This document shows positions 11,702-49,520 of a stretch of DNA of 64,000 bases, piece by piece. Under the pieces are notes generated by a model that worked only from the letters and a program-made list of their open reading frames with translations, did not search any database and had not been told where the DNA came from. The first letter of the stretch is position 1. Each line of letters opens with the position of its first letter. The stretch is taken from NCBI GenBank assembly GCA_965248925.1, contig CBDFLE010000006.1, positions 3,328,001 to 3,392,000 on the forward strand, in the 5' to 3' direction. The DNA is from Candidatus Multivoradales bacterium (lineage in GTDB: Bacteria > Acidobacteriota > Thermoanaerobaculia > Multivoradales > J023). The position numbers and the translations under genes are program-made.

Positions 11702-11739
11702 TAAGTTGTTGTAAACAAGTGTTCCCGACTTGGGTGGCA
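11702..11739 (+). mobile_element. Isolated RAYT-element end motif
   Basis: CCGACTTGGGTGGCA (11725-11739) is the exact reverse complement of 37936-37950 and 41590-41604. It is preceded by TAAGTTGTTGTAAACAA, which resembles 39277-39293 and 48348-48364. Confidence 0.75.
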
Positions 11740-13607
11740 CTCTGAGTGGCACAGCGCTGCCACAGATCGAGGCCTACCGCCCGCTTCTACCTTTAAGCCT
11801 GTCGGTCAATGTGGCAGTCGGCGACGCGCTGGGCCTCGAGCGACTGGCCAGCTATCACTTGGGAAACATCCTGATCCACGTCGGCACGTGCCTGCTGCTC
11901 TACTTCTTCTTCAGTGAGCTGTTGCGCTTAAGACCGGGACTTTCGTCGGCTGGCCTACCGGCTTCGCACCTTTCATTTCTCGCGGTGCTTTTGTTCGCGA
12001 TGCACCCGGTCTCGGGCGTACCGGTCAACTACATCTGCGGCCGCGAACTTGAGATGATGATGTTCTTCATGGTGGCATCGCTTTGGGTCTACGTGCACAT
12101 GCGGCAGCGCGGCGACACGATCGGCGGCTGGATCTTGGCTCTCGGGCTGCTGACTCTGTCGCTCCTGGCGAAGCAGAACAGTGTTGTGATGCCGGCGCTG
12201 GTTCTCAGCTTTGACTTGCTGGTGGCTCGAAGGCCGTTCTCGGATCGTCGGGTCTACGGGCGCTTCTTCGCCTTTGGCGCAGTGGTCGCGGCGTTCTTCG
12301 TCTGGACTGAAGTTGTGCTCGACTTTTCGGATCTTGGTCAGCTCAAGACGACCTCCAATACACCTTGGATCTACGCCTTGACCATGGCTCGAACGCACGT
12401 CTTCTACTATCTTCGCAATGTGGTCTGGCCGTTCGAGATGCGGGCATTGCCGCGCATCGACCCGGCTGAAGCTTGGACCGATCCGGCGGTGCTTCTGGGG
12501 GCTGGAGTGATCCTCGCTTCGCTCTGCCTTGCTGTCGCCCTAAGAAAACGGCTTCCGCTCGCCAGTTGGTCGATCCTGGCCTACTGGCTGCTCTTTGCAC
12601 CGACGTCCTCCATCCGTCCCTTCCGCTACTTGGCTGCCGACTACCGGCAATATCCGTCACTGGCCTTCTTGGCTCTGGCTTCGATCCTGGTGGTTTTCAG
12701 CCTTTGGAGACGGTCCGCCGTCACAGCTCTGGGGCTGGCCTTCGGGATCTACTTTTCATTCTCGACCTTCGCGATCAATCGCATCTGGAGAACGGAAGGC
12801 TCTCTCTGGGCTCAGAGTGTGCGCTACGGCACGGAAGCTCAGGGTCATTTGAATTATGGATTGAGCGTCGCCGGACGAGATCCGCAGCTCGCCGAGCAAC
12901 ACTACAATAAGAGCCTCGAGCTTTCTCCGGGCAATGTCTATTCGCTCATCAACCTGGCAATGTTCGAGATCAGTCAGGGCCGGCAAGCCGAGGGACTCGC
13001 AACCATTCGCGAGGCGGCGAACCGCTCCCCCGATTGGAGCTTGACCCATTACTGGCTGGCACTCGCCGAGCGCCAGACTGGCCACGAAGAGCAGGCTCGG
13101 ATGGCTGCTATTCGAGCCGCCGAGCTCGATCCCCGCAATCCGGAATACCTCTACCTCGCCGCGCACGAGCTCCAGTTGGCAGGACAGGTGCCTCGGTCGC
13201 TCGACTATCTGGAAAAGCTCCACGAGCTCCGACCGGGTTTTCGCGACGCGGACTTCCTTCTCGGCTTCGCTCTCTTGGGTTCCGGTCGCTTCGAGGAAGG
13301 CCTGGCGGCTAGCGAGCGCGCGATCGAGATCGATCCGGATCATCTCGACGCTCGTCACAATCTGGGCTACGCCCACCGGCAACTCTCAAACTACGAGGCC
13401 GCGGCGGAGGTCTTTCGCCAGGTCTTGGCAAGGGATCCGTCGCGGGTCGTCACGCACTACGAGCTGGCTTCGACTAATGCCGAAAGCGGTCAGCTCGAAG
13501 CGGCGCGCCAGACCTTCGGAGTCCTTTTGCAGCTGGATCCGGACCATCAGGCGGCGTTGCGCGGCCTGGAGCGGCTGGAGTCACGCGACGAGTCCTCTGA
13601 GCACTAA
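11730..13607 (+). pseudogene. TMTC-like GT-C protein O-mannosyltransferase with TPRs, apparently 5'-truncated
   Basis: YRPL, YHLGNILIH, LLFAMHP, LLAKQNS, multi-TM body, then TPRs. The N-terminal TM and DD loop expected before YRP are missing, and the ORF starts inside the RAYT end motif. Confidence 0.7.
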
Positions 13608-14887
13608 GGAAACGTGTTCCCGGTCCACAGACAATAGACGCCGAGGTTGACCGTGCGGTCGTTGAAGACGTCCTCGTTCTCAACCCGGCAGAGCCAGGCA
13701 TCGTCGTTCCCCGGATCGACCCCAGAGTAGATCAACTCGACGTCATCGGCCGACCCGGCATCGCCACAACTGCCTTCTGCTGCAATGAACTCAAATCCCA
13801 CCGTGAGCGAAAGAATGGAACAGCTGCTGGTGTACTCACAAAAGTCAGCAGTGTTGTTACAGTTTGCGGTCCTGACCAACCACCAGGTCCCCACCTTTCC
13901 TTCTAGGGGGCCACTCGGGATGACAGTGGCCGGCCCGTCCGGGCCTGCTGGACCCGCTGGACCTTGGGGGCCAATAAATGAGTCCCCCATGGGGCCAAGG
14001 TCACCCGTCAAACCGGTCGGCCCCAGCGGGCCGGTCGGTCCGGGGGGACCCTGGGCTCCATTGGGTCCTCGGGGGCCAAGGGCGCCGAGGCGAATCGCAC
14101 CTTCGGGCCCGGTGGATCCGGTCGGGCCGATCAGTCCGGTCGGCCCCGCGAGCCCGAGGGTTCCCGTGGGTCCAGACAATCCGGTCGGTCCAGATGGGCC
14201 TAAAGGCCCCGTAGATCCGATCGGTCCATCGATGCCATCGCTCCCAGTGGTTCCGTCGACTCCGGTCGGTCCAGAGGGTCCGAGATCACCGGTGAGACCT
14301 TGGGTCCCCACCTCCCCGGTCGGTCCGGGTGGGCCAGGATCGCCCAAGGCTCCTGCGGCTCCGATGGGTCCTGGCGGACCGGTCGGTCCTGGTGGACCCT
14401 CTGGCCCGGCAACGTCGCTAGGAGCACCCGCCGGTCCGGTGGGTCCGGTGGGCCCGACGGGCCCTGGGTCGCCATCAGGACCGGTTGGCCCGGCGAGCCC
14501 CTCCGGCCCGCTGGGGTTGATGGTCAGATCGTGAACGTCGAATTCTCCATCGTTGGCGCCGCGGGTCACGATGAGCAGATAGTCCCCTCCGGGACATCGC
14601 GGAGTACCCATGGCGTCCGGCGGGCAGAGCGCAAGGATCTCGGTAGCCGTCGGTGTACCCGCCACCGCCAAGGAGCCGAGTTGGCCGAGAGAGACTTGCA
14701 AAGGGCTGAGTCCGCTGTCCAGGCCTTCGCCCTCGATCTGGATCAGGTCGACGTCCCCGATGACTACGGTGACTTGGTCGATGCTCATCTGGGCGATCGC
14801 CTGACCTGGCACGGTGAGGAACATCGCCGTCGCGGCAAGGGCCATCACCGCTACCCTCTCAAACGAGGCCCCGGGGCTAGTAGACAC
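13604..14887 (-). CDS. Secreted collagen-like protein (IPT-like N-domain, GPT-rich Gly-X-Y tract, Cys-containing C-domain)
   Basis: GTG 14887 with AAGGAG RBS overlapping the upstream stop; signal peptide; ~65 Gly-X-Y triplets. Confidence 0.85.
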
Positions 14888-15926
14888 AGAAGACTCCTTG
14901 TACATATTCGGTCGCAACCTCACGGTTGATTCGACACTTCCAGGTTCTCTGCGAGCTGTCGCTTGGATCCAATCCAGAGTAATAGATCCAGTTCGGCGAA
15001 TCATGAAATCCGTCGTTTCCGGGATCCGTTCCAGCCCCACAGAGGCCGAAGACGGCCGTCATGCCTACAGGGCAAGACACAGTGTAGACAAAGGGATCGG
15101 CGCCACCGCTGTTCAAGGTTCCGATTTGGCTCCAGAAACCTTCCGGGTTGTACGGACCGCGGTCTCCCGTCGGACCGGTCGGTCCAACCGATCCGATCAG
15201 AGAGTCTCCAGGCAGTCCTTGACTCCCCTGGGTACCCTCGGGACCATCTGCGCCTGCTGGCCCCGCGGGCCCGGTCTGGCCCTCAAACCCCGCTGGGCCG
15301 GTGGCACCTTGGGGCCCGGTCGGACCGGTCGGTCCTTGGGGTCCCGTCGGTCCTACCAGTCCCGTGGGCCCTGCGGGTCCCGTGGGTCCGGCGGGTCCCG
15401 CTGGGCCGGTGGCACCCTGGAGCCCGGTCGGCCCGGTCGGTCCGATCGGGCCGGCAGCGCCCTGCGAACCGGTGGCCCCTTGGGCGCCGGTGGGTCCGGT
15501 AGCACCCATCGTTCCGGTCCCGCCGGGCACTCCAACGCTTCCTGAGGATCCGCTCGGCCCAGTGGGTCCTGTGGCTCCCGTTGGGCCTACAGCACCTTGC
15601 TCTCCGGTGGGGCCGGTCGGCCCTCCTGATCCGGTGGGCCCAGTTGCACCAGCGGGTCCCGTAGAACCTTGAGATCCTATTGGCCCTGGCGCCCCGACCG
15701 CCCCGGTTGGACCCTCGGGACCCGTCGGCCCTCGCGCACCAAGGGTCAGATGAAAGGCGTCGCTTTCAGCGTCGCCGCCGCCCCGCGCGACCACCAGAAC
15801 GAAGTCACCCGATGGGCAAGTCGGCTGTCCGGAGCCATCCTCCGGGCATTGCACGACAATCTCGGTGTCGGAAGGACTCCCGAGGATTGGCAGTGCGCCG
15901 TAGTTGCCGAGGGTGACCACCAGGGG
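14877..15926 (-). pseudogene. Collagen-like paralog 2, lacking its 5' end
   Basis: Begins mid-domain ([28 protein letters not shown], homologous to [28 protein letters not shown]), followed by a long GPT tract and a Cys C-domain. Confidence 0.75.
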
Positions 15927-16906: not shown

Positions 16907-17172
16907 CGGCGTGTCCCTTGGTCCAGTGTGACTGTTCTAGCTCCCCTGCCACCCCAGCGTTTCAGCTTGTCATCGCTGCCGGTCCTACTCTCGGCCTGGT
17001 CGAAGGGACTCTGCCGGGGTTCAGGTAGCCTCTACATTTGAAAGCGCAGAATTCCTAGCTCTGCCATCACGAGAAACGGAAAAAGATTATTCGGAACTGT
17101 TGGAGGCGCGAGGCGTGAATCGAACGTCGCTGCCTCGGCCTGCTTGCGCGCGCGAATGGGCGCGGTTTTCGG

Positions 17173-17736: not shown

Positions 17737-17898
17737 CGGTTTATGGCTTAGAACTCGCCCAGAATAACAGCACCGTCCCGCCTTGCAGCACCGATCTCTC
17801 CAGTGTTCTGGGCGAAGACACGAAGACCAGTAAGGCGGCACAGCTCTTCACCATCAACTTCGGCGCCCCCAAGGACTTTGCTGAGGGCCAATTCAGAA

Positions 17899-20946: not shown

Positions 20947-21135
20947 TGAAGAATCCTGGCTTCCTATGGCGGTGTCGGTCCCGATCGCACGGGAATTAAA
21001 CTACGCTGCGGCTGCCCCTGTCTCAAAAAGGGCATGGCATCTGGGAAGATTGGCACCTTGGAAGGTCGCTCGAGCTGGATCGGCGCCTCTCTTCTCGACG
21101 GCTTGACACCGAGTGGACGAAGATGTCTATTCTGC

Positions 21136-27806: not shown

Positions 27807-27808
27807 GG

Positions 27809-36085: not shown

Positions 36086-36326
36086 AGCGAGTAGCAGTGA
36101 CCAAGTCCTCACAGTTCAAGTTTGCCCAGCTCCCGATCGAAGGTAGTCAATACCGATGCTATCTAACGCTCAGCGGTATGCGGATTCGGCAGCCGGTACG
36201 GCCATCGGGCGCGGCTTCGAGGGCGAAATCGAAGCGGTGCTTGGACAGCACCTATTTGGCCAGGGTCAGCCCAATGCCTGCCTTCTGTCGAGGTTCCTGC
36301 AGAGGAACCAAGCTGACTAGGTAGAG

Positions 36327-37718
36327 TTAATGGACCAGCCGGGTGTGGCTGTAAGCCGAGTACCAGCCGAACCAGAAGGCGCGGTGGGCCGGAAGTCGGG
36401 GCAGCAGGCGGCCGTCCGCGGTCGCCAGGCGGTCTTCATGCAAAGTCCAGCTAGTGCCGGATTCGTCGACCGCGGTGTGGTCACGATCCCAGCTGGCGAA
36501 GCGCAGGCCAGCGCTTTCGTAGACTCGGGCAGCGCCTGAATTGTCGGTCAGGACGACGAACGGTAGCTCACCGATCTGGTCGTGGTAGAGCGGCTTCTCG
36601 GCCAGGTAGGCGACCGCGATTGCCAGTGGCTGGTCAGGATGTTCGGAGACCTGGATGCCGAGCACTTGGTCCTTATTCTTCAGCCGCTGGTCGAGCTTGG
36701 GAACGCTGAACATCAGCTCGTCGGTGGCGAAGTAGCGCCGATAGGCGGCGCCTTCGGCGTAGTCGCGACGGTGGCCGGTGTCGAGGGATAGCACTTGGGT
36801 TCGCGGATGGCGCCGACGCCATTCGCCCCAGGTGGTGGTGACCACCGAGCGCCGTTCGAGCTCGATGTCTTGGCCGACCAGAGGGCCGATCACCGGCCGT
36901 CCCCACAGTGTGTTCCACAGCGATTGGCTGGCCTGGTCATACATCAGCTTGTTGGAGCGATAGAGGAAGCCGCTGGTGCCGAGGTGGTAGTTGGTTTCGG
37001 CGACGGTGGTCTCGTAGATGATCACCGTGCCACAGAGCGTGCAGTAAACCCCGGCCACCGGCACCGCGCCAACCGTGTCGACGAACATCTCGTGCCAGGC
37101 CAAGATCCGTTGTGGGTAGGCCCGCACATCGCCATTGATCTCGATGCCGAAGACGACGTCCTCATCGTCCAGATAGTCGGCCTCGGCGGCGCTGATCATC
37201 TGCGGCTGGCGCAGCGGTGGGATGCCGTCTTGCGGCACACCGCCCCAGCGGACCTCGTCGAGGCGGATCAAGCTGGTTCGCTGGGAGGAAAAATAGCCCT
37301 TGAACTTGGCATCGATCAGGCTGTAGATCGCCGACTTGAATTCCGCATAAGAGGGCGCCGGCTGCTCTTCTTGCTGCCACAGCCAGTCGTACCATCGATC
37401 GATATCGAAGCTGAAACGCTGGCCGGTCTGCTTCTGTAGCAGGCCGATCAAGCGGCGCTCGACGGCCCGGTCCCGCGACAGGTGGATCACCTCGAGAGCC
37501 ATCGTCACGTATCCGGGCTGCCAGCTGTCGCGGATGGTGTCGTAGGCCGCCTTGTGCTCACCGGCCGGTTCGGTGAGCAAGGTGACGAAGGCACCGGCGC
37601 CGGCTGAGCCATCGGTGGCGGCGGTGCTAGGTGAGTTGGTCTGGGCTTGGCCCAGGCTGGCTATCGAGAGCACAAAGGTAAAGGCCAGGAGGGCTTTTGG
37701 TTGGATCGACATCGTCAC
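36327..37718 (-). CDS. DUF3179 domain protein
   Basis: Signal peptide, WGGVPQDGIPPL, RAYPQRILAWHE, YCTLCG, SGFLYRSNKLMYD, FWFGW. Confidence 0.88.
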   Translation of the reverse strand: MTMSIQPKALLAFTFVLSIASLGQAQTNSPSTAATDGSAGAGAFVTLLTEPAGEHKAAYDTIRDSWQPGYVTMALEVIHLSRDRAVERRLIGLLQKQTGQRFSFDIDRWYDWLWQQEEQPAPSYAEFKSAIYSLIDAKFKGYFSSQRTSLIRLDEVRWGGVPQDGIPPLRQPQMISAAEADYLDDEDVVFGIEINGDVRAYPQRILAWHEMFVDTVGAVPVAGVYCTLCGTVIIYETTVAETNYHLGTSGFLYRSNKLMYDQASQSLWNTLWGRPVIGPLVGQDIELERRSVVTTTWGEWRRRHPRTQVLSLDTGHRRDYAEGAAYRRYFATDELMFSVPKLDQRLKNKDQVLGIQVSEHPDQPLAIAVAYLAEKPLYHDQIGELPFVVLTDNSGAARVYESAGLRFASWDRDHTAVDESGTSWTLHEDRLATADGRLLPRLPAHRAFWFGWYSAYSHTRLVH

Positions 37719-37910
37719 TCCGGGAGACTCGGTTGCGGAAGATGCTGTTACCTCGTCTGAAGTCTACGTGGCTGCTGGCAGGGGCGGTTCAATTCCTTAC
37801 GGGCACCCAGTCGGCACCCAGTCGAAGCCGGTTGGCATAGATGCTGCCCGGAGCGAGTAGAAACTGCCCAAAATTGACCGGTGTCAATGAACACCATTCT
37901 TGACGCCCTT

Positions 37911-39318
37911 AGGGCCTTCTATGTTGCTTCTATGTTGCCACCCAAGTCGGCAGAATCATCGGAGATCGCGGTCTTCCGGCTCTGAAGAACGCAAACTCCT
38001 GCTGTTTGGCGTCTCGATCGGGCGCCTTGATCGACGATTCGTGTCCTTGAGCTTGCGGAAATCTACATTGACAGAGACGGGATGTCACCCGCGCCAACCC
38101 TTTGCGAATCAAGGGCGGACCTCTCCTGTAGAGAGTTGAAGATACTCTCGAACTCGGCCCCTTGCGGGTTGGTTAAGGCGGTGATGGCAACTGTGACGAT
38201 GCTGTCAATCCGTGCGCGCGGGCCGGCCCCGCGCGGCTCCGGGGCTGTCCGGCGCCGCTCGATGTGCATGGGCGCGCAGGCGGAAAGCATCCCGGCGGAA
38301 ACTCCACCGAGTAGTCGCCCGATCGCAGGCGAGTCGCCGCTTCTCGATATGCCTCGACGAACAGGCGGTAAGCTTCCTTCAACTGTTCTCGGACCGCCTT
38401 TGATGCGGCATGCACCACCGGTGCCGGAGACCTCTTAGTGCGCAGAGGACTCTCGTGTGGGTGCTGCTTGCGGATTGCCGTCGCACCCAGAGGTACGGTG
38501 CCGCCAAGCACTACCCTCCGGGCGTTCTTAGCGTCGATTTCCGCGATCATGTCGGAGATCCGCTGGCGGATCTCTGCGGGAGGGAGGTGCTGCCAGCAGG
38601 GTAGGGGATCAAGCTGCAGCGTGTAGCGCTCGATAAAGTCCTCAGGGTCGGTCTCTTTGCCGCGGCGGTTGGCCTCGTATTCGAGGCTGCGGTCGCGCCA
38701 GATCCCTTCGAGGGTTTTGCCTTGGGTGAGAGCCTCGAGACACTGAAGCCCCGGCCAATCCCGGCAGCGTAGCACCAGATGTTCCTTCGCACCGTGACTG
38801 ATCACATACCGAAGCCGGGAGACCATCGCGGCTTCTTCTTCGCTAACTTCGATGGCTCGGAACCGGCGGCCCCAGAATTTTTCTCGCCAGTTGACCCTGC
38901 GGCCAGCCTCGCGGGCGAGATTGCCATTGACGTATTCCATGAAGCCGGACAGATCTTTGATGTCGGTGGCTCCAAGTAGGAAATGGAGATGGTTTCGGAG
39001 CCCGCCGAATGCGTAGATCTTCACCGGGTGCCTCTGCTGGGCGCGGGCGATGATGCCGACCGCAATGCTGCGGAATTGTCCGTCAGCAGGCAGAAGGAAT
39101 CGGCTTTGGAGGCATCGCGTAGTGATTTCGAAAATGGCGCCGCCGGGGCGCAAGTGTCGCAAGAGTCTTGACATACCCCCTGTAGACGGCAAGAGGGTTC
39201 CCAATCTTGACAGTTCGCGGGAGAAAAGTTGGTGGATTGTGCGGTGGGGTGGAGCCGCGGTCCTTTGCGACCGATGTAAGATGCTGAAAACAAGAGAGTA
39301 CGGTTGGGGTGGCACCCC
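37911..39318 (-). mobile_element. RAYT/TnpA-REP-like element with outward-facing TTGGG(G)TGGCA end motifs
   Basis: Left region shared with 41577-41985, right region shared with 48147-48388; motifs at 37936-37950 (minus) and 39296-39318 (plus). Confidence 0.8.
38173..39174 (-). CDS. HUH (Y1) tyrosine transposase, RAYT/TnpA-REP-like
   Basis: FEITTRC, NHLHFLL (HUH), FWGRRF, LRYVISH (catalytic Tyr), and C-terminal FPPGCFPP; start ATG 39174. Confidence 0.88.
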   Translation of the reverse strand: MSRLLRHLRPGGAIFEITTRCLQSRFLLPADGQFRSIAVGIIARAQQRHPVKIYAFGGLRNHLHFLLGATDIKDLSGFMEYVNGNLAREAGRRVNWREKFWGRRFRAIEVSEEEAAMVSRLRYVISHGAKEHLVLRCRDWPGLQCLEALTQGKTLEGIWRDRSLEYEANRRGKETDPEDFIERYTLQLDPLPCWQHLPPAEIRQRISDMIAEIDAKNARRVVLGGTVPLGATAIRKQHPHESPLRTKRSPAPVVHAASKAVREQLKEAYRLFVEAYREAATRLRSGDYSVEFPPGCFPPARPCTSSGAGQPRSRAGPARAHGLTASSQLPSPP

Positions 39319-39336
39319 GCTGGCACCCCGCTGGGA

Positions 39337-39742
39337 GCACCCCGCTGGGAATTTCGGCGGCGCCGGCTCGCAGGACGACAGAGTCCAAGTGATCGCCGTC
39401 CAGGGCGACAGCCACATGGTTCTAGGTGCGGCCGCCGAGATCGCGCCCTACACTTTCGTGCCGGTCGTCGTTCGGCTCGATGGGAGTGGTAACTACGACA
39501 CCAATTTCTCAGGCAATGGCTGGCGTACTTTTCCCGATCCGCCGGGCTATGTACAGCGCGGCACACCGTCGATCGCCCTCCAGCGTGATGGCAACATAGT
39601 AGTCGCTTGCCTCGCCGTGGCGATCGAACCCGACGACAACGATCAGATCTTCAACACCCGTTTGCTGAGTTCCCATGTGCTGTTTGCCGATGGTCTCGAG
39701 AGCGGCACGGTCAGTGGCTGGACTACGTCGGTCGGCGACTGA
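39337..39742 (+). pseudogene. 3' fragment of a delta-60-repeat secreted protein with FADGLESG tail
   Basis: IAVQGD, RLDGSGNYDTNFSGNG, IALQRDGNIVV, VLFADGLESGTVSGW; 5' part replaced by the RAYT end. Confidence 0.7.
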
Positions 39743-39877
39743 CCCGAGAGGTCGGCTCAAGGTGTTGCGGCCAGGGACCCGAGGCCGGCGTGCGGTTTCG
39801 CCTTGCCGAGCGTTTGGTCAAGTATGTCGCTCTGGATTGGCTGGGGCAGCTACTGACCGATGGTTCGGAGGCCGCCC

Positions 39878-41344
39878 ATGTTTGTTTGCAGACTCACGGT
39901 TGCTTTGCTGATTCTCGCTCTCTTCGCCGATCGAGGCTGGTCGGGTGAGATCGGTCAAGTTGGCGCCAACGACTTTCGGATCTCGGACATGGACGGGGCG
40001 CCTTTTGTCGGCATCACGGGGCCTGGCAGCGTCGCTTTCAACACCCTTGATCGGGAGTATCTAGTGGTCTGGTCGGGCACTGCGACGCCGTCGGCGACCT
40101 CCGAGATCTATGGCCAGCGCCTCGACCGCGACGGTTCTCCGGTCGGTGCCCCCGACTTTCGGATCTCGCAACTCAGCCAGGGCAATCCAAGCTTCGGCGC
40201 TTTCTCGCCGTCGGTGGTCTACAACCCACATCGCCGGGAGTACCTGGTGGTCTGGTATGGGCAGGACTTCCTGCTGCCCGACAACGGTAACGAAATCTAC
40301 GCTCAGCGCCTAAGGCCAGACGGCAGTAGCCTCGGGGGCAACTTTCGAATCTCTCAAACAGGCGACGGAACAGCGATATTTGATGCCTTCAATCCGGTTG
40401 CCACCTACAACGGAAACGACTTCGAGTATCTTGTCGTTTGGTACGCCGACCACGGTCAAGGTGCCCTGGTTAATAACGAGTTTGAGATCTACGGCCAGTT
40501 CCTTGACGCTGTCGGTGTAGAGATTGGAAGTGACTTCCGGATCTCCGAAATGGGAGGCTCTGGCGATCCCTCTGATGCTGCTTTTGAACCCGACGTCGCT
40601 TTCGATCCGATCAACGGTTGGTACCTGGTGGTCTGGACGGGTGACGCGGCCGGTGGCGCTCTGGTCGACGACGAGTTCGAAATCTACGGTCAGCTGCTCG
40701 ACGCGACCGGCCAGCAGATTGGTACCAACGACTTCTTATTGTCGGATCTAGGTGGCTTTGGCGACGCCGATTTCGACGCCGGCTCTCCGGCCGTCGAGTT
40801 CCAGCCGGTCACTCGCGAATGGTGGGTTGTCTGGTTCGGAGACGACGACGAGGGAGGGCTGGTCGAGGGGGAACTCGAGATCTTTGGCCAACGGCTGAGT
40901 ATTGCTGGCGCGCAGCTTGGCGACAATGATTTTCGTATCTCGACGATGGGCGGGTTAGGAGCCGCGGGTTTTTTCGCGTTCGTCCCCGATCTGGTTTTCG
41001 ACTCCAGCAGTGACGAAATGTTGGTAGCGTGGTCGGGCAACGAGCAGATCGGCGAAACCGAAATCCACCTGGCGCGCTTACGGGCCGATGGCCTCCTGGC
41101 CGATCGCTCAATCAGGATCTCGGACCTCGGGCCCGATGCCGATCCGAGCTTCTTTGCGGAGGCCCCCGCGCTCGCTTGGAACGAGGTTGATGGCCAGTTG
41201 TTAGTGGTTTGGTGGGGCAATGATGATCAGAGCGCGGGAGTCGCCTCCGATGTCGACATCTTTGGCCAACGGCTCACTCACCCCTTCTTCTGTGATGGTT
41301 TCGAATCGGGTGATTTCGCTGCTTGGAGCCAGGTGACGCCTTGA
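39878..41344 (+). CDS. Secreted beta-propeller-like repeat protein with FCDGFESG tail
   Basis: ~7 repeats DFRIS...P.VA(F/Y)N....YLVVW....EIYGQ.L; signal peptide; GGAGG RBS. Confidence 0.8.
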   Translation: MFVCRLTVALLILALFADRGWSGEIGQVGANDFRISDMDGAPFVGITGPGSVAFNTLDREYLVVWSGTATPSATSEIYGQRLDRDGSPVGAPDFRISQLSQGNPSFGAFSPSVVYNPHRREYLVVWYGQDFLLPDNGNEIYAQRLRPDGSSLGGNFRISQTGDGTAIFDAFNPVATYNGNDFEYLVVWYADHGQGALVNNEFEIYGQFLDAVGVEIGSDFRISEMGGSGDPSDAAFEPDVAFDPINGWYLVVWTGDAAGGALVDDEFEIYGQLLDATGQQIGTNDFLLSDLGGFGDADFDAGSPAVEFQPVTREWWVVWFGDDDEGGLVEGELEIFGQRLSIAGAQLGDNDFRISTMGGLGAAGFFAFVPDLVFDSSSDEMLVAWSGNEQIGETEIHLARLRADGLLADRSIRISDLGPDADPSFFAEAPALAWNEVDGQLLVVWWGNDDQSAGVASDVDIFGQRLTHPFFCDGFESGDFAAWSQVTP

Positions 41345-41576
41345 GCACAGGATCGGCTAGTCGCTGGTTGCGGCCAGCTCGCGCACCTTCTTGGGCAATC
41401 GCAAGGGACGGTAGACTTGCTACCCTTCAAGCCGGCCGTAGGCCATGAGCCGCCCGCTGGCGATGCCCTCCGGGGTAGCCTGCACAAAGCCTTCCCAGCC
41501 ACTTTTCATCGCTGACGAGCCTTTGCTCTTAGCGACTGAAGGGCGGTGGATGCCGGTAATCAGCTCGCCTCGCACC

Positions 41577-42008
41577 AGGGCTTCTATGTTGCCACCCAAG
41601 TCGGCAGAATCATCGGAGATCGCAGTTCTCCGGCTCTGAAGAACGCACACTCCTGCTCTTTGGCGTCTCGGTCGGGCGCCTTGATCGAGGGTTTGTGACT
41701 TTGAGCTTGTTGAAATCGTCTTTGCCAGAGACGGGAGGCCAGCCGCTCTAACTCATAGGCGTTTCTAGGGTAGACCTCTCCTGTGGAGAGTTGAAGTTAC
41801 TTTCGAACTCGGTCCCTTGCGCTTTGGTCAAGGCGGTGATGGCAACCGTGACAACGTTGTCTATCCGGGCGAGCGGGTTGGACCCGCACGGCTACAGGGC
41901 TGTCCGGCGTTGCTCGATATGCCTCGACGAACAGGCGGTATGCTTCCTTCAGCTGTTCTCGGACCGCCTTTGACGCGGCATGCACGGCTACGTTTGGGGT
42001 GGCACCCC
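41577..42008 (-). mobile_element. Non-autonomous, internally deleted derivative of the RAYT element
   Basis: Collinear with 37911-38415 (one internal gap), then jumps to the end motif CGTTTGGGGTGGCACCCC. Confidence 0.85.
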
Positions 42009-42132
42009 GAGGGCAGGCACCCCGAGGGCAGGATCTCTTGGCGTGGCCAAAGGCACATGCAGCTGCGCTCCTGTGGCATACTCACTAGGTATTTTCCACC
42101 ATCGAAATCGCTCATCGTCGTAGGGACCCCAG

Positions 42133-42750
42133 GTGAGTCGACTGCCAGCCGAGGCCGGGAGTGCTAGCGACCCGATCGCTGCCGCCATCGAGGCGTTTCA
42201 GCGTGGTGTTGATCGCGAGCGCAGCTTCCGGACCATCTTCGAGCGCTTCCACGCGCCCGTCAGGCGCTTCTTCGCCCGTCGCGGCGTGCCGGCCGAGGAA
42301 TGCCCCGATCTAACCCAAGAGGTGTTTCTCGGGATTTATCGTGGACTGGCGAGCTGGCGGCCGGAGGCTCGTTTCGAAACCTGGCTGTTTCACATCGCCA
42401 ACACCACCTGGCTGAAGCGCTTGCGTCACCAGGCGGCGAACAAACGCGCCGGCATCGAGCTGGCGACCGACGATATCGAAGCGTTCGAGCCCGCATTGTG
42501 GCTGGCGGATCGGCAACTCGACCGGCTGCTCGACGGCGAACGCCAACAGGCTTTGCATCAGGCCGTGACCGAGCTTCCCGCGCAGATGCGTAAGTGCTTG
42601 ACTCTGCGGCTCTACCACGACTTGAAGTACCGGGAGATCGCCAGCTTGCAACGGATCTCGCTGGACACCGTGAAAGCTCATCTGTTCCAAGCACGGCAGA
42701 AGCTCAAGCTCAGGCTGAGCGATTTTGCCACCGAGGAACTGCCTTGGTGA
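42133..42750 (+). CDS. ECF RNA polymerase sigma factor
   Basis: DLTQEVFL, FETWLFHIA, LPAQMRKCL, YREIA, TVKAHLFQAR. Confidence 0.92.
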   Translation: MSRLPAEAGSASDPIAAAIEAFQRGVDRERSFRTIFERFHAPVRRFFARRGVPAEECPDLTQEVFLGIYRGLASWRPEARFETWLFHIANTTWLKRLRHQAANKRAGIELATDDIEAFEPALWLADRQLDRLLDGERQQALHQAVTELPAQMRKCLTLRLYHDLKYREIASLQRISLDTVKAHLFQARQKLKLRLSDFATEELPW

Positions 42751-43553
42751 GCGGGAGGAACGAAGTGGAGAACACCGATCATCGTGCCCTGCGCGCGGCG
42801 CTGGCAGACGAGGCCAGTGGCGGTGATTTGTTGGCCGCTCACCCCATTGCCGACACTTTGCTGGCCTATCTCGAGGGCACTCTGGAGGGTGCCGAGGCGG
42901 AGCGGATCGCGGACCACTTGGTGGCTTGCCGCGAGTGTGGACGGGCAGCGATCGATCTTGGTGACTTCGCATCCGGCGAAACCGAGGAGGTTGCGGAGTT
43001 CGCTACCGTCGCCGCTTGGCGGGCTTTTAAGGAACATCTTCCAGAGCAGGACGCAAGCGCCCGATCACGACCCAGTCCGAATTCCCGATCCACCCTTCAC
43101 TGGCCGAGCCGGGCCTTAGCGGCGAGCCTGGTGGTGGCATGTCTGGGTTTGCTGCTGTGGGGCGGTGCCTTGCGGCGCTCGTTGGGCCGGGCCGAAGCGA
43201 CGGTTGTCGAGTTGGAGGCGGCCCAGCTCGAGGTGCCGATCCTCTATCTCGAAGGCGCCGTGCGCGATCAGGCGGCAGCGGTGGCGGAGATTGCCCGAAG
43301 GGCTGGTCCGGGCCGATTCTTGATCGTCCTGACACCGCCGCCAGGAGCCTCGTTCAGGGGCTTGGCAGTCGAGGTGGTGGATTCGGTGGGGCGGCCCCTG
43401 TGGTCGGCCAGTGACCTCGACTTGAGTGAGTACGGCACCTTGCGAATCGGGCTGTCTCGGGCTCAACTGCCGGCTGGCGACTTCTTGTTGCTGCTGCGTG
43501 ATCGATCTGGTGACCTGCTGGCCGAGTATCCACTGCGATTGTCCGATCACTGA
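42747..43553 (+). CDS. Zinc-binding (zf-HC2) transmembrane anti-sigma factor
   Basis: HP..LLAY.EG.L...HLVACREC, TM helix, extracytoplasmic beta domain; GTGA overlap with the sigma stop (alternative GTG at 42765). Confidence 0.85.
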   Translation: MSGRNEVENTDHRALRAALADEASGGDLLAAHPIADTLLAYLEGTLEGAEAERIADHLVACRECGRAAIDLGDFASGETEEVAEFATVAAWRAFKEHLPEQDASARSRPSPNSRSTLHWPSRALAASLVVACLGLLLWGGALRRSLGRAEATVVELEAAQLEVPILYLEGAVRDQAAAVAEIARRAGPGRFLIVLTPPPGASFRGLAVEVVDSVGRPLWSASDLDLSEYGTLRIGLSRAQLPAGDFLLLLRDRSGDLLAEYPLRLSDH

Positions 43554-43564
43554 GGGGTCGAGGC

Positions 43565-46500
43565 TTGCCGGCCAGGTACCTGCAGCTTGCCGTCTTCTCG
43601 CTGCTTTGCTGGGCGCTCCTCAGCGGCTGCGCCCCGCCCGCGGTCCACACCGATTCAAGCCAGCCCGGCCAAGCTGCCAAGACCTTGGTGGCCGGAATGC
43701 AGCTCGAACAAGTGCCGCGAGATGCCGACGATGCTCGGACTTTCATCGTCGAGATGCAAGCGGGCGACTACCTGCAACTGCACGTCGAGCAACTCGGTGT
43801 GGATGTGCTGCTGCGGCTGTCGTCGCCAAGTGGCTTACCCCTGCTCGAAGTCGATAGCCCGACCGGTCGCCAAGGTTTTGAGCGGCTGTATTTTGTGACC
43901 TCTGAGAGCGGTTCTTATCTTCTGCGAGTGGAGCCCTTTGCTGCACCCGAGATGGGTGGTCACTTCGTGCTGCGGGTCGAAGCGCAGGGCTTGGCCTCAC
44001 CGCGACAGCGCTTGCAGGCCGCCGCGGCGGCGGCGGAGTGGGCGGCACGGGTAGAGTCTGAGCCGGCCGAGGTGCGCGCTCATCTGCGGCAGGCGTGGCG
44101 TCTGTGGCAGCAAGCGGCGGCCCCCGCGGCGGTGGCTAATGTCGAGATGCAACTGGCGGAGCTGGATCAGCTCGTGGGGCACATCGATGCCGCCAACACC
44201 GGTTTTCGCAGGGCCGCCGCGGGCTTCGAGGTCGCCGGGGAGCCGCTGCAGCAGGCCACCGCGCTGCTCAGTCTGGGGTCGATGTATTACCGCTTGGATC
44301 GCTTGCCCGAGGCCATTGCGGTTTACCGTCTGGCGTTGGCGCCGGCCGCGGCTTCGACCGGCAGGCATCTCGAAGCAGATTTGCTCTTTAACCTGGGCAC
44401 CAGCCATCTGCTGCGCGGCGAGTTACAGCAGGCGCTCGACTACCACGAGCGCGAGGCCGCGGTGCGAGGCGAGGCCGAAACGATGGCCGAGCGGGCCGAG
44501 CGGCTGCACAACCTCGGCATCCTCAACTGGCAACTCGGTCGCTGGCAGCGGGCGGTGGACCTGCTGAGCGAGGCTGTTGGACTTTTTGCTCAGCTCGGCG
44601 ATCAGCGAAGGTGGGCCAACAGTCTGGTGCAGCTGGGAGAGGCACAGCGCAACCGCGGTGAGCCGGAGGCGGCTGAGGAGAGCTACCTCCAAGCCCTCGC
44701 CATTCAACGCCAGCTCGACTCAAGCCGCGAGCTTTCGACCACTTTGGTTGCCCTGGGGCTGCTGCACAAGGAAAACGGCCGTCTGGAGAGTGCCCGTGAA
44801 CTCTACCTGGAGGTTCTGGAGCGCAGCGCGGAACTCAGCCGAGCCGATCGCGCCACCACGTTGCACAACCTGGCGGCGATCGACCGCGCTCAGGGTCGGC
44901 CCGAGGCTGCGCTGCGGCGCTCTGTTAAGAGCCTGGCGCTGCATCGCCGGAGCGGCAGCGTTCACTTGCAGGCCCATGCCCTGGTGGGTTTGGCGGCGGC
45001 AGAACGTCAACTCGCCTTGCTGACCGAGGCTCGGCGGCATCTGGAACAGGCTTTGGAACTCTTTGAGTCGACCCGTTACGCGGTGCTCACCGCTAGTCGG
45101 CGGTCATCGTACCTGGCCACTGTGCAGCCGCACTACGGCAACTACATCGACTTGCTGGTCGAGCTCGGTGAGCCGGCGGCGGCGCTAGCGGCGGTCGAGC
45201 GCTCTCGAGCGCGCTCATTGCTCGATGCCTTGAGCCTTGCGGCGCTGGCGGTTGACGGTGAAGAGGATGCTGAGCTGCTGGCCGCAGAAGAGCGGGCCCG
45301 AGGCCAAGTTGAAGAGCTGGCGGCGCGCCGCCAAGCGCTCAGCCTGCGCGCGGTCGCGCCGCCTGACCTGCTGCCGCGAGTCGAGGCCGACTTGCGGCTG
45401 GCGCTAGACCGGCTGGAGGTGGCCAGCGATCGGCGGCGAGCAGGGAACCCCCGCTACCGCGAGCTGACCCGGCCTCGACCGCTCGATGTCGGCTCGATTC
45501 GGGGCTTGCTCGATGCCGACACCCAGTTGCTGGAGCTACATTTGGGCGAACGCCGCAGTTTTCTCTGGCTGGTGGATGACCAAAGTCTCGAACTCTTTGA
45601 GTTGCCACCGGCGGCTGTTCTAGAGCAGGCCGCGCGCGCCGCCTATCTGGCCCTGGGGCGCAGTCACCACCGCGAAGGCCATCGTCAGGCTGAGCAGGCT
45701 CTGTGTGATCTTTCGCGGCAGCTACTTGGTGTGGTCGGAGAGAGTCTGAGGGCTCATCGATTGGTGATGGTGGCGGATGGCGCGCTGCGCTACCTTCCTC
45801 TGGCGGTGCTTCCGGACCCTCGCCAGCTGGCCGCCGCCTGCGATGGGGTGGTACCCCTGGTGGAGAATTTCGAAGTTGTCAGCCTACCCTCAGTTTCGGT
45901 GTTGGCCGAAATACGGCGTGGCCACCGCGGGCAGGATCTGGGACTGCCGAGTTCGCCGACGCTGGCCGTGCTAGCCGACCCGGTGGTTGCTGCCGACGAT
46001 CCGCGGCTGAGGGGGCTGTTGCAGGATACAGACCTACCGTCGGCGTCGGCTGGGCTACGTCGCTTGCCCTTCTCTGGCCAGGAAGCGGCCACAATTCTGG
46101 CCCTGGCCGAGGCGGACTCAGGTTGGTCAGCGTTGGCGTTTGCCGCCGCCAAACCGGCACTGGCCGATCCCCGACTGATGGCTGCGGACATCGTCCACTT
46201 TGCGGTCCACGGAGTGCTCGACAGTGAGCATCCGGAGTTGTCCGGACTGATGTTGTCGCGTTTCGACCGCGGTGGTCAGGCACGCGACGGATTCTTGAGT
46301 GTCCACCAAGTCTACAACTTGCGTCTCGATGCCAAGTTGGTAGTGCTGTCGGCGTGTCGTACAGCGCTGGGGCGGGAGATCCGAGGCGAGGGTCTGGTGG
46401 GTCTTACCCGTGGATTTATGTTTGCCGGTGCCGAGCGCGTGCTGGTCAGCCTGTGGAATGTCGACGATGCGGCCACCGCCGAACTCATGGAGCGGTTCTA

Positions 46501-46633
46501 TCGTGCTCTGTTGCACGACCACTTGCGGCCCTCGGCGGCGCTGCGTCGCGCACAACTCGAATTGCGCCGCCAGCCGGGCCGTCAGGCACCTTTTTTTTGG
46601 GCTGGTTTCGAGTTACAAGGCGATTGGCGATGA
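43565..46633 (+). CDS. Lipoprotein with PPC-like domain, TPR array and CHAT (caspase-like) protease
   Basis: Lipobox LLSGC; YLQLHVEQLGVDV; TPRs; CHAT motifs DGALRYLP, HFAVHG (His), LSACRT (Cys), SLWNVDD, WAGF. Confidence 0.93.
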   Translation: MPARYLQLAVFSLLCWALLSGCAPPAVHTDSSQPGQAAKTLVAGMQLEQVPRDADDARTFIVEMQAGDYLQLHVEQLGVDVLLRLSSPSGLPLLEVDSPTGRQGFERLYFVTSESGSYLLRVEPFAAPEMGGHFVLRVEAQGLASPRQRLQAAAAAAEWAARVESEPAEVRAHLRQAWRLWQQAAAPAAVANVEMQLAELDQLVGHIDAANTGFRRAAAGFEVAGEPLQQATALLSLGSMYYRLDRLPEAIAVYRLALAPAAASTGRHLEADLLFNLGTSHLLRGELQQALDYHEREAAVRGEAETMAERAERLHNLGILNWQLGRWQRAVDLLSEAVGLFAQLGDQRRWANSLVQLGEAQRNRGEPEAAEESYLQALAIQRQLDSSRELSTTLVALGLLHKENGRLESARELYLEVLERSAELSRADRATTLHNLAAIDRAQGRPEAALRRSVKSLALHRRSGSVHLQAHALVGLAAAERQLALLTEARRHLEQALELFESTRYAVLTASRRSSYLATVQPHYGNYIDLLVELGEPAAALAAVERSRARSLLDALSLAALAVDGEEDAELLAAEERARGQVEELAARRQALSLRAVAPPDLLPRVEADLRLALDRLEVASDRRRAGNPRYRELTRPRPLDVGSIRGLLDADTQLLELHLGERRSFLWLVDDQSLELFELPPAAVLEQAARAAYLALGRSHHREGHRQAEQALCDLSRQLLGVVGESLRAHRLVMVADGALRYLPLAVLPDPRQLAAACDGVVPLVENFEVVSLPSVSVLAEIRRGHRGQDLGLPSSPTLAVLADPVVAADDPRLRGLLQDTDLPSASAGLRRLPFSGQEAATILALAEADSGWSALAFAAAKPALADPRLMAADIVHFAVHGVLDSEHPELSGLMLSRFDRGGQARDGFLSVHQVYNLRLDAKLVVLSACRTALGREIRGEGLVGLTRGFMFAGAERVLVSLWNVDDAATAELMERFYRALLHDHLRPSAALRRAQLELRRQPGRQAPFFWAGFELQGDWR

Positions 46634-46715
46634 AAAGCAGGGAGCCGGCTAAACCCTTCGGCAGGTTTTGGATTCGAGGCTGCAGAAGACTGGATATGAC
46701 AAAGGAGCGAAGCCG

Positions 46716-47189
46716 ATGAGTGACCCCCTACTAGCGCCCTACGAAAAGATCCTTATCAACACAGAACTCGACCTGGTTCGCTTGGCTGAGCAGGTGACCC
46801 AGCAGGGCCGCTGGCTCGAAGTGGGCGGTGTCATGGTGGCCCTCGAGCTGGTGCACCGCGGTCGCCAGACGCTGCCGGGTTGGGACATCCAACCCTCCAA
46901 TCCGGAGAAAGTCGATCAGATCACCATCCCACCGCCCGACCCCTCTGGATTGATCGGCGAGTTGCCCCACCGTCCGGCGGCGGATTTGCTCGAAGCCGCA
47001 CTGGCCGACTTGCTCGAGCTGCTCAGAGTTGCCGCTGATAGAGAAGATCGCCTGCCGCTCAATGCTTCTCTTCCGGCGTTGCTGCTGGTCGACCGCGCCC
47101 GCCGAGCGGTATCCGGACAGATGGCGGGTGGCAGAGGCGGTGCCAAGGTCGAGCCGCCGGCGCCGATGCCTCCTGATCCCGGTAGCTGA
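46716..47189 (+). CDS. Hypothetical protein of two helical repeats, each ending in PPDP
   Basis: AAGGAG RBS; ALELVHRGR...IPPPDPSG and ALLLVDRAR...MPPDPGS. Confidence 0.65.
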   Translation: MSDPLLAPYEKILINTELDLVRLAEQVTQQGRWLEVGGVMVALELVHRGRQTLPGWDIQPSNPEKVDQITIPPPDPSGLIGELPHRPAADLLEAALADLLELLRVAADREDRLPLNASLPALLLVDRARRAVSGQMAGGRGGAKVEPPAPMPPDPGS

Positions 47190-47316
47190 GAGGCCACTCT
47201 TCTCATCCCATCTCTCGGTCCGGGCCGGGCAGCATCGCTTCCCGGGGTCGGATTGTAGCCAACCAGATGGCAGTGATTCCTTCGCCAGACGACTAGCCCT
47301 TACCTGGAGCACGACC

Positions 47317-47460
47317 ATGACGATCAAGATTCCCAAAGATCCGGCAGGAGAACTGCCGGGCGGTCTCGCAAAGCGCCCCCCTCCGCGGACCTATGACGGC
47401 CCGATGCACCCCGCCAAGCTCCCGCCGCCGACTCCGCCGCCGGTGGACAATGGCGGCTGA
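47317..47460 (+). CDS. 47-aa proline-rich peptide
   Basis: GGAG RBS; MTIKIPKDPAGELPGGLAKRPPPRTYDGPMHPAKLPPPTPPPVDNGG; followed at once by a strong hairpin. Confidence 0.5.
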   Translation: MTIKIPKDPAGELPGGLAKRPPPRTYDGPMHPAKLPPPTPPPVDNGG

Positions 47461-47512
47461 GCAGAAGCCGCGGGCATTCGCCGGTGATTGGGCGGGTGCC
47501 CGCGGGGTCTGC
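47461..47512 (+). terminator. Strong stem-loop after the sigma-CHAT operon
   Basis: CCGCGGGCATTCGCC...GGCGGGTGCCCGCGG (G-U pairs on + strand); no clear U-tract. Confidence 0.55.
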
Positions 47513-47703
47513 GACGAGATCGCGGTGGGTCGACAGAGGTGAAGGGCTAGAGTGCGAGTGAGTGCTCCCTACCGGTTCGCCGTCAGGTCCGCAGAGCGAT
47601 GCGCGGATAGACCCAGCTGCTGCATCGCCCGCTGGTCGCTCAGCCGCGGCTCCGGAAGAGCCGATCTAGGTTCTACTTCAGGGTGCCATGAGCAGGACAT
47701 GCC

Positions 47704-48084
47704 TCACGCCTGCAACCACAGCAAGACGGCGAAGATCAGCACTGTCGCGGTGACGAAGCTCTGCACCCAGCGGTGGCCTTTGAGCACCGTCAACCGGGCG
47801 CCGAGGGCGCCACCGACCATGGTGCCGGCGGCTAGCGCCAGGCCGTAGCTCCACCACACCTTGCCGTGGTAGGCGAAGACCGCCAGGGCGAGGCCGGTGA
47901 GACAGAGGATGGTGAGCACTTTGACCGCGTTGCCGCGCACCATGTCGAGGCCGGCGGCGGTGGTGGCGGCGAGCACTAGAAACCCGACTCCGGCCTGGAC
48001 GAAACCACCGTAAGTGCCGACGGCGAAGAAACCCGCGGCAAGGGCCAACGGGTGCGCCGGGCCGGTCACTGGTTGGCTGGGTGC
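47704..48084 (-). pseudogene. Duplicated 3' half of the TauE/SafE gene
   Basis: 381-bp direct repeat of 58740-59120 with about 10 mismatches by eye. Confidence 0.92.
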
Positions 48085-48388
48085 GAGTACGGTTTGGGTG
48101 GCACCCTGAGAGGGCTATGCGCCGCCCCGAATCTCCTCTGCCGGCAGATGTCGCCAGCAGGTAGAAGGAATCGGCATTGGAGGCAGTGCGTGGTGATTTC
48201 GAAGGTGGCGCCGCCGGGGCGAATGTGTCGGAGATGTCTTGCCATACCCTCTCTCGACGAGGAGAGGGTTGCCAATCTTGCGGTTTGGAGGAGAGAAAGC
48301 TGGCGGATTCTGAGACCGACTGGGAACGCTGTTCCTGGCCTGTCGGATAAGTTGTTGAAAACAACAGAGTACGAGGTGGGTGGTGCCC
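48085..48388 (-). mobile_element. RAYT remnants: lone end motif (48085-48106) plus 5' transposase fragment and right end
   Basis: GAGTACGGTTTGGGTGGCACCC; 48147-48388 is collinear with ~39075-39318 (MARHLRHIRPGGATFEITTHCLQCRFLL). Confidence 0.82.
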
Positions 48389-49520
48389 TTGTGGGCGCCG
48401 ATGCCTCCTGATCCCGGTAGTTGACCTTCAGATCGTCACTTTGGCGAGCCAAGTGAGGTCGGTTTGCCAAGAACGGCGCAACTTGACCTCGCGCTCGAAC
48501 ATAACTGGTGTTTTCCGCAGGAGTAGCGTGTAGGGGCTGCCGCTGCGGCGTGTGGTGTGGCCTACTGGCAGCTCGTGCTGGTCGAGCCTTTCATGCACAT
48601 GCCTTCGTCCTTGCTTGGCAAGTGGCCATTCGAGTTCCTGCCGCGATGGACTGGACAGAAAACGGCGGAGTTTGGCGCAGAGCCGACAGTGGCAATCTGT
48701 CGGTAGATCGATGGACCAATCACCCGGCTTGCGGGGAGCTGAAGTGAGCTGCGCCTTCAGCCGCCGTTGACAGATTTGCTGGATGGCGGTGAGGGCAGGG
48801 GAGGTCTTCCATTGGGTTGGTTTCTTCCGCCCAGCAGTCCGCAGTAGTTGCATCAAGCAAGGGTGCAGCGCCGCATTCTTCTTGAGGCGAAGAAAGGCCA
48901 CTACTTCGTTTCGTAGAGCTGCCGCCCCGCTGGCCGCGGCACCTTCGAGGATGCCGAGGATCGGCTTGGCGAGAGCCTTCACCTCACGCTCCTGGATGCT
49001 AGGTCTCATACCGCAGCGTAGAGTTTGCTGTATTTCCTTTCTCAACCATGCCCAGCGCTCTTCTAAGAGCAGCTTCGCACACCTTCGACCCCGAGTACTG
49101 ATGGCACCTAGGGACGCGCACAGGTGGGGTAGTGAGCCGAGCCAAGTAAGTGGGTTCCGTTGGCGGTAATCCTGCTGGGCGGCCCACTGTGAGAGTAGGG
49201 ACCTGGTCCAGTCTTCGCCATAGCCCTTGGCCAGCGCTATCCAAGCGGACGCACACCTCGCTCTGAGGTCCTCGACGCAGAAGGGTTCGAGGAGGCCAGT
49301 GGCCAACGCTGGGCTGGCCAGAGCCTCGGCGACTTGCAGAGTTTGATCGAAGAATCCACGACGTTTCTCGGCCGGGACGGTCTCTGCCCAGAAAGACATC
49401 AGAGAGGTGGCCAGATCCTGGGCCTCGGTGAGCTTGCCACGGCGCAGGTGCTGCCTCAGGCTTTGTAGGGCCCAGGCGGGCGGAATGTGTCAATGAGAAT
49501 GAGACACTTTCTTCTGGGAA

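Follow-up and report, generated by a model that had tools for sequence, protein, structure and literature searches.

The window analysed here is a 64,000-nucleotide (nt) stretch of the 7.98-Mb genome (62% G+C) of Candidatus Multivoradales bacterium (Acidobacteriota), comprising positions 3328001-3392000 of contig CBDFLE010000006.1 (C6), and it contains a single intact gene for a Y1 HUH transposase, P0001 (38173-39174, minus strand; 333 amino acids (aa)), which lies between inverted ends and is accompanied by one internally deleted copy of the element and by two end fragments. P0001 carries the HUH histidines H62 and H64, the tyrosine Y123, and a conserved C-terminal region without a Pfam match. 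Short tandem duplications adjoin the ends of the element, and all of them start at the same base, between the G and the GCAC of a short motif that we write G^GCAC, the caret marking a putative nick.

Specifically, the left terminal inverted repeat (TIR), on the inner side of the nick, occupies 37939-37957 and reads ...GCCGACTTGGGTG^GCA on the minus strand; beyond a nick position between 37939 and 37938, two copies of the 11-nt unit GCAACATAGAA run outward from the nick (37917-37938, minus strand). The right end, on the inner side of the nick, occupies 39277-39311 (plus strand; ...GAGTACGGTTGGGGTG^GCA), with the nick position between 39311 and 39312, and is followed outward by a prefix-nested array of 11, 14, and 14 nt (39312-39322, 39323-39336, and 39337-39350, plus strand) in which each unit begins with GCAC. 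The 14-mer pair of this array has zero register slack and starts exactly between G and GCAC. The internally deleted copy (41576-42001) retains a left end with a nick position between 41593 and 41592 (minus strand), a C-terminal coding remnant, and only the final ~16 nt of the right end; a 15-nt unit is present twice from its nick onward (42002-42031, plus strand). At 115 nt outside the left end of the intact element, the 11-nt unit GCACCCAGTCG is present twice (37803-37824, plus strand) at a pseudo-site, CG^GCAC, in which CG replaces TG. These four sets of duplications are present as described in an initial annotation of the window, made from the letters and open reading frames (ORFs) only.

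The remaining pieces of the element are scattered over the window. A solo right end (11702-11748, plus strand; nick position between 11736 and 11737) precedes a single GCAC unit of 12 nt, after which TG^GCAC occurs again (nick position between 11748 and 11749), and the ORF of a protein with TPR repeats begins at this solo end. A fragment of a further copy (48152-48388, plus strand) comprises a transposase N-terminus and a degenerate right end, with a degenerate copy of the motif at 48367-48388. Exact matches to TTGGG(G)TGGCA are found at 11730 (plus), 37936-37945 (minus), 39304 (plus), 41590-41599 (minus), 41994 (plus), and 48094 (plus), so that six exact sites and the degenerate copy stand as initially annotated, with the exception that the first site had been placed at 11725, 5 nt from its true position. 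The genome as a whole contains 49 exact matches, and the window, with 6 of the 49, represents 0.8% of the genome. With up to one mismatch allowed, the 11-mer form of the motif occurs 5 times in the window versus 0.97 times expected, and none of 100 shuffles reaches 5; the 10-mer form occurs 7 times versus 4.0 expected, with 7 of 100 shuffles reaching 7, which taken alone is weak.

Logan contigs cover the 39312-39350 array without change. The contigs available come from four runs of a single sample, probably the one that was assembled; they confirm the sequence over all arrays, and the left-end repeat that the copies share is the only place where they break.

Gene fragments also adjoin these sites. 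A minimal right-end site (48085-48114, plus strand), with 16 nt before a nick position between 48100 and 48101 and about 14 nt after it, is fused to a duplicated C-terminal half of a TauE gene (47703-48084, minus strand). The duplicated stretch is 97% identical to 58739-59120, and the intact gene (58740-59498, minus strand) is TauE (Pfam E-value 2e-38). On the minus strand the homology ends precisely at GCACCC, a position at which the intact TauE gene has CG^GCACCC; the claim of the initial annotation that the TauE half begins at GCA is thereby confirmed, and the junction fits a possible cut at a look-alike site. The partner end of the fragment is the complement of position −16 of a right-end site. 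Two other fragments, named "TMTC" and "delta-60" in the initial annotation, which would have them begin at a GCA, both adjoin a nick site. Their names are weakly supported: the former contains TPR repeats only, and the latter matches delta_60_rpt with an E-value of 0.0013 and 18.5 bits, against a cut-off of 76.5.

To define the boundary of short duplications genome-wide and without a prior motif, we collected all perfect tandem runs with a period of 9-40 nt and at least two copies, yielding 552 primitive runs, or 1104 oriented views, and for each view we recorded the 6-mer spanning the start of the run, allowing for its register slack. (The table of far-end boundaries merely mirrors the table of starts and is no control, and a shift series at solo sites is blurred by register slack.) The commonest boundary 6-mer is TG^GCAC, with 52 views versus 1.19 expected from its genome frequency, and AG^GCAC contributes 13 more. 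The word TGGCAC itself is not over-represented in the genome (5045 sites versus 5348 expected). Among the 52 views, nine runs have zero slack, and all nine begin between G and GCAC, that is, without any microhomology.

Counting any G^GCAC, the genome contains 75 oriented runs at 56 loci. Fifteen of the 75 have a transposase match no more than 1 kb away, in a zone that makes up at most 0.85% of the genome, and the remainder lie at dispersed solo sites and in clusters. For periods of 10-40 nt, 51 runs with TG and 13 with AG, of 311 runs in all, begin at G^GCAC, or about one in five, and short tandem duplications in these genomes would thus be largely linked to an enzyme. A palindromic solo family, GTGCC-W-GGCAC, accounts for 140 oriented sites, 24 of them with a perfect duplication at the nick position and only 10 within 2.5 kb of a transposase match. 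Its clusters, all outside the window (C6:1089040-1089420, C6:1206380-1206720, and C5:1397700-1398040), have duplications on both strands, each running outward from its own nick position, and thus form BIME-like arrays.

The duplications share a fixed start and differ in extent. Unit periods are 9-17 nt with a mode of 15 nt in the genome studied and mostly 10-16 nt in the loci of other genomes described below, with a full range of 9-20 nt; the unit is present twice in 46 of 52 runs, three times in 5, and four times in 1. Twelve arrays are prefix-nested, having a common GCAC start and differing 3′ extents (for example 11/14/14, 15/20/20, and 14/12/12), which indicates that they are not the product of processes that copy with equal period. 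The 3′ ends within one array differ by 1-5 nt, and some one-base differences in length fall in runs of G. Of 52 units, 35 end in G, 14 in A, 2 in C, and 1 in T, whereas unduplicated sites have 34% G at positions +9 to +17 (binomial p 1e-6); in the loci of other genomes, 29 of 48 end in G. Two copies in one metagenome-assembled genome (MAG) that are 99.92% identical over 1257 nt, at different loci, carry different arrays, indicating that duplication events are fast relative to substitution.

The register is conserved across phyla. A search of one genome per species with the family alignment provided 80 loci (742 kb) that encode proteins 37-52% identical to P0001, in Acidobacteriota (mostly Thermoanaerobaculia), Myxococcales, and deltaproteobacterial MAGs, with at least 10 of the 80 loci coming from one MAG. 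These loci contain 150 runs, or 300 oriented views, among which TG^GCAC once more leads the boundary words, with 36 views. Fifty oriented runs start at G^GCAC, in 29 of the 80 loci; 40 of the 50 are found no further than 600 nt from the gene, in a zone that makes up 12% of the sequence, and 37 of these 40 face outward. The consensus of 61 unique sites from the genome studied and 48 sites from the other loci has A at −9 and G at −5, followed by S-C-T-G^G-C-A-C-C-T, and ...TG^GCAC(C/T) appears to be the sole constant of the site across the family.

The protein has the fold expected of a single-strand endonuclease of the Y1 class. P0001 matches Pfam Y1_Tnp (PF01797) with 33.6 bits, against a curated cut-off of 23, as do 57 of 66 family members, and contains the HUH motif N61-H62-L63-H64 and a single catalytic tyrosine, Y123, which aligns with the tyrosine of ISDra2 in a profile alignment (PDB profile match 2xm3, E-value 5.6e-6). 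Residues H62, Y123, P141, and G142 are invariant in 66 aligned members, and H64 is present in at least 90%. The AlphaFold model of P0001 has a pLDDT of 93.7, and among known structures it matches 4er8_A, E. coli TnpA-REP with a REP hairpin, far better than any other (Z 13.1, root-mean-square deviation 2.8 Å, 156 of 165 residues; Foldseek E-value 4.2e-6), the match to IS608 TnpA having a Z of 7.9. As judged from this predicted model, P0001 is a Y1 HUH endonuclease with a catalytic core closest to that of E. coli TnpA-REP, a RAYT. No Pfam family matches the C-terminal half, and in searches with the full-length model no structural match clearly covers it, although it may still have a known fold.

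The family is large, in this genome and beyond. It takes in every one of the 11 Pfam Y1_Tnp matches in the genome. With tblastn, 26 matches are identified, of which four are additional full-length copies with 76-78% identity, and a second tier has 38-44%; a simple k-mer search for inverted repeats around the 38-44% paralogues returned nothing useful, and their ends were located by eye. The tyrosine motif across the family is Y-V/I/L-I/L-S-H/Q-G (YVISHG in P0001, YILSQG in the subfamily of L012). When 1.84 billion representatives were searched with a profile, at least 932 clusters (50% identity) had E-values of at most 1e-30, almost all of 300-330 aa, one homologue being labelled "REP element-mobilizing transposase RayT" by its source. 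As a separate observation, the loci L012, L013, and L014 (C6:3632750, C5:709130, and C5:1438300) each carry a copy of a larger repeat, with 98.9% identity over 2238 nt between two of the three copies; in this repeat the C-terminal end of what appears by eye to be a ComM/Mg-chelatase-like gene is joined to a transposase of the 38% subfamily; no recognisable site is present at the left boundary of this repeat.

This family of ~310-aa proteins appears to fit no subclass or family definition with which it was compared. It resembles TnpA-REP and other RAYTs in its Y1 HUH core, in that a short repeat stands in inverted orientation on either side of the gene and recurs, dispersed and in clusters, elsewhere in the genome, and in that the amplification model published for TnpA-REP has the same steps of nick, extension, and attack on a tyrosine-linked 5′ phosphate (PMC3333891). 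Unlike RAYTs, its members are ~310-333 aa long with a conserved C-terminal half that has no Pfam match; they lack the Y---NP motif of class 2 and their sites lack the 5′ GT[AG]G tag at the foot of a hairpin and any general hairpin, going by the accessible definitions of Quentin et al. 2018 (PMC6006769); the cut would fall inside the repeat at TG^GCAC and not at CT beside a hairpin; and there are many paralogues, with 11 Pfam-level genes and 26 tblastn matches, whereas RAYT genes are few, usually one for each family in a genome. P0001 scores 44.3 bits against NCBIfam REP_Tyr_transpos (NF047646), below the equivalog cut-off of 80.

The TIRYT/TIRtron elements of Di Nocera et al. 2013 also have a tyrosine transposase gene between terminal inverted repeats, and their repeats form dispersed families in some genomes, as dimers or clusters, with Acidobacteria among the hosts (PMC3733652, accessible text). 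In a comparison by motif, the TIR motif GGGGWSAS described there for the majority, not all, of these elements is not matched here, since GGGGTGGCA has G where A is required. Subclass 2.1 of Quentin et al. 2018, unlike the present family, has Y---NP and helix-turn-helix tails, and for neither TIRYT nor subclass 2.1 do the accessible parts of the two papers (PMC3733652, PMC6006769) describe a nick register or an anchored duplication. The class 3 TnpA-Y1 proteins of the same study (Y----Q, ~178 aa, repeats with a CnGA foot), compared by description, resemble the family in NHLH, in the YV at the start of the motif, and in hosts; the Q is absent in P0001 and the length here is 310-333 aa. The tyrosine motif of the family appears to fit no subclass signature in the tables of that study, so far as these are accessible (PMC6006769). 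IS200/IS605 elements (IS608, ISDra2) have the same catalytic fold and motifs, as the 2xm3 profile match and further Foldseek matches show, but their proteins are ~130-150 aa, they have no inverted terminal repeats, they are cut outside subterminal hairpins, and they act on one strand; P0001, with its 333 aa and its TIRs, scores 13 bits against NCBIfam transpos_IS200, for which the cut-off is 55. Single-strand elements of the IS608 type have a known strand bias, whereas here there is no replichore bias. In rolling-circle plasmid initiators such as RepC of pT181, termination leaves ~10-12 nt of new DNA, copied from just 3′ of the nick, on the tyrosine. This is the same stretch, and a similar length, as in the duplicated units; RepC belongs to another HUH family and acts at a replicon origin, and its oligonucleotide inactivates the protein and is not written into DNA.

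Enzymes of the HUH class cut single-stranded DNA and keep the 5′ end on a tyrosine, and a freed or foreign 3′-OH resolves the link. The published reaction would be expected to leave the footprint described above, in which the 5′ side is anchored, the 3′ side varies, G is preferred where the ends are joined, and microhomology is not required. We consider that an enzyme that nicks at G^GCAC, with its tyrosine-linked 5′ end then joined to a nearby downstream 3′-OH, is the best explanation of the duplications and probably the correct one. The sites, which form the inverted ends of transposase genes and also occur as dispersed REP-like solo copies and clusters, would be recognised by P0001 and its paralogues. 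The enzyme would nick between G and GCAC and stay bound through its tyrosine to the 5′ GCAC... end. A 3′-OH located 9-20 nt downstream on a newly made copy of the same strand would then attack the phosphotyrosine; this 3′-OH could be the growing end primed at the nick or an end from a second, relaxed cut, two sources that the footprints do not distinguish. The strand would thereby gain an extra copy of the bases just past the nick, which the next replication would fix, and repeated rounds would yield arrays of units with a common 5′ start and differing length. The same chemistry at look-alike sites in genes would join foreign DNA to GCAC..., as in the TauE half-gene. The strand cut would be the one that reads TG^GCAC, because the duplicated DNA always lies 3′ of this position and HUH chemistry retains the 5′ end. 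The anatomy of the sites, the register, its statistics, its conservation across phyla, and the protein fold are what the data show; we infer the cut, its strand, and the involvement of a polymerase from these footprints.

The idea of nicking, extension, and rejoining, already put forward in the initial annotation, coincides with a published model. In Figure 7B of Ton-Hoang et al. 2012, which is a model only, BIME arrays grow when a host polymerase extends the 3′-OH left by a first cut and the new strand is then cut in turn, so that its 3′-OH can attack the first tyrosine-linked 5′ phosphate (PMC3333891). The footprints described here match this model for E. coli TnpA-REP, for which, according to the accessible text of that paper, in vivo evidence was lacking. 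Corneloup et al. report, in the accessible part of their paper, that an added oligonucleotide resolves the covalent complex if its 3′ base is the same as the −1 base of the cut site, the sequence upstream mattering little (PMC8266576), and the preference for G at the unit end parallels this rule. The proposal of a single putative cut position, G^GCA(C), with duplications extending from it to variable 3′ ends, draws strong though indirect support from the boundary statistics, the 80 loci from other genomes, the nested arrays, and the preference for G at unit ends. The underlying observation is confirmed and is more general than first seen; its interpretation is partly supported.

One part that is not supported is the choice of targets by pairing of GGGTG with CACCC. 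In two subfamilies the site is spanned by a palindrome (GGGTG-G-CACCC in one, GTGCC-W-GGCAC in the other), and stems enclosing the nick position average 3.5 bp at 43 sites of the genome studied; at 35 duplicated sites from the other genomes the mean is 2.7 bp, versus 2.96 bp at 3000 random TGGCAC sites. A nick in a hairpin loop was therefore rejected as a general feature, the stems from other genomes being no better than random, and a stem enclosing the nick appears specific to some subfamilies. Another part, that the system performs local remodelling rather than plain transposition, is right as to the remodelling and too strong as to the rest: mobility and local remodelling both appear to occur, because 99.92% identical copies are found at different loci and solo sites are dispersed.

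Several observations weigh against a simple nick-and-extend reaction. Twenty-six oriented runs have TGGCAC nearby yet start outside the register window; in about 14 of the 26 the duplicated unit is an entire site, 20-40 nt long and bounded near −13 to −26 and +9 to +16, and 7 of the 26 start 3 nt later, at TGGCA^C, forming a minor second register (e.g., C5:710083, C6:1206392, and C6:4208451). Breakpoints also recur ~16-18 nt upstream of the nick position, which this reaction does not predict, in the deleted copy, at the TauE junction, and in several arrays of relatives. The reaction explains neither these breakpoints nor the whole-site duplications, examples of which are at window 41986-42001 and 48085-48100, at L060:6140-6260, and at C6:891968. 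Copies of the whole element share 7-16 nt beyond the nick position on each side, indicating that the nick is internal to the functional end and is not the boundary of the element, and the model does not explain mobility; in the near-identical pair L059/L060, the left side begins directly at (G)CAC, in direct orientation with the right nick position, an arrangement that would allow nick-to-nick single-strand transfer in that case. The identity of one G at the joint could also reflect microhomology. A replichore strand bias of events is absent in the genome studied (26 versus 26), and a lagging-strand bias was rejected on these counts. The contigs from the four runs of the probable source sample contain no length variants, minority variants being invisible in contigs.

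Some of these observations would be accommodated if the same enzyme and cut site moved units as excised single-stranded pieces, through a second, relaxed cut ~12 nt away or ~16 nt upstream and insertion at the same or another nick (compare Figure 7A of PMC3333891, accessible text). Whole-site duplications with edges near −13 to −26 and +9 to +16, minimal solo sites of ~30 nt (e.g., window 48085-48114 and C5:2082709), the 7-16 nt shared past the nick by copies of the element, and unit ends that favour G or A all fit such pieces. The 3′ boundaries, however, have no sequence consensus beyond the last base and vary by 1-5 nt inside a single array, and circular or free intermediates are not visible with data of this type, and we regard excised pieces as an unlikely source of the duplications. 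Replication slippage or unequal exchange, stimulated by secondary structure and without any enzyme, would draw on the palindromes over the site in the two subfamilies and on the one-base length differences in runs of G. It is difficult to reconcile with the 9 of 52 events that lack microhomology, with a fixed 5′ boundary beside a variable 3′ one, with stems in other genomes that are no better than those at random TGGCAC sites, and with the clustering of events at the ends of transposase genes, facing outward; we judge it improbable.

Two further explanations can be considered. Insertion sequences that target REP repeats are known (PMC3333891, accessible text), and the duplications could be the target-site duplications left by another insertion sequence after its excision. 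A target-site duplication would not vary in length as much as these units do (9-20 nt), nor does the nesting of the arrays fit, and no such element lies between units in any of the 75 runs of the genome studied or the 50 from other genomes, which makes this origin very improbable. The arrays could instead be selected regulatory or protein-binding sites unrelated to cutting, such as sigma-54-like −24 elements, since TGGCAC equals the −24 core of sigma-54 promoters, and a duplication of 11 nt places a second TGGCA near the −12 position. Periods that range from 9 to 20 nt, the location of the sites as inverted ends of transposase genes, and the fixed register and nesting, which regulation leaves unexplained, render this reading hardly credible.

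Returning to cutting at G^GCAC followed by joining to a nearby 3′-OH, a broader reading may tentatively be offered, although we doubt it in this full form: that the proteins constitute an unclassified multi-phylum Y1 family whose site is cut inside its own terminal repeat, acting as a natural "nick and write" enzyme that adds short copies at a fixed address, duplicates 25-40-nt sites, and fuses gene fragments at look-alike sites. If true, footprints at about −16, 0, and +12 would point to a reaction unlike the peel-and-paste of IS200/IS605 and unlike the cleavage of E. coli RAYTs beside a hairpin. In the literature as accessible to us, in part only, we found no paper linking TGGCAC or nick-anchored duplications to a tyrosine transposase, and the multiplication of REP repeats and the cellular role of RAYT-like enzymes are stated to be unknown in the accessible parts of PMC3333891, PMC8266576, and bioRxiv 10.1101/2024.07.17.603846. 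The genome itself would here record the reaction, in a single-base register kept from Acidobacteriota to Myxococcales, a length distribution of added DNA, and a preference for the joining base. A model published as a cartoon would in this way yield predictions that are testable with few oligonucleotides, and a large family of ~310-aa proteins is singled out.

Other features of the window lie beside the element and its pieces. A 10-nt tandem repeat, GATCGAGTGG, is present in about 3.5 copies at 11645-11685, ~20 nt upstream of the solo right end and outside the GCAC register. Over 36300-41400, the element and its neighbours lack synteny in the family-level relatives compared, and the sole conserved part of this interval is a DUF3179 gene (36327-37718; 71-75% identity). 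Directly downstream of the deleted copy, at 42133-43553, a gene for an ECF sigma factor (Sigma70_r2, r4_2) is followed by a zf-HC2 anti-sigma-like gene.

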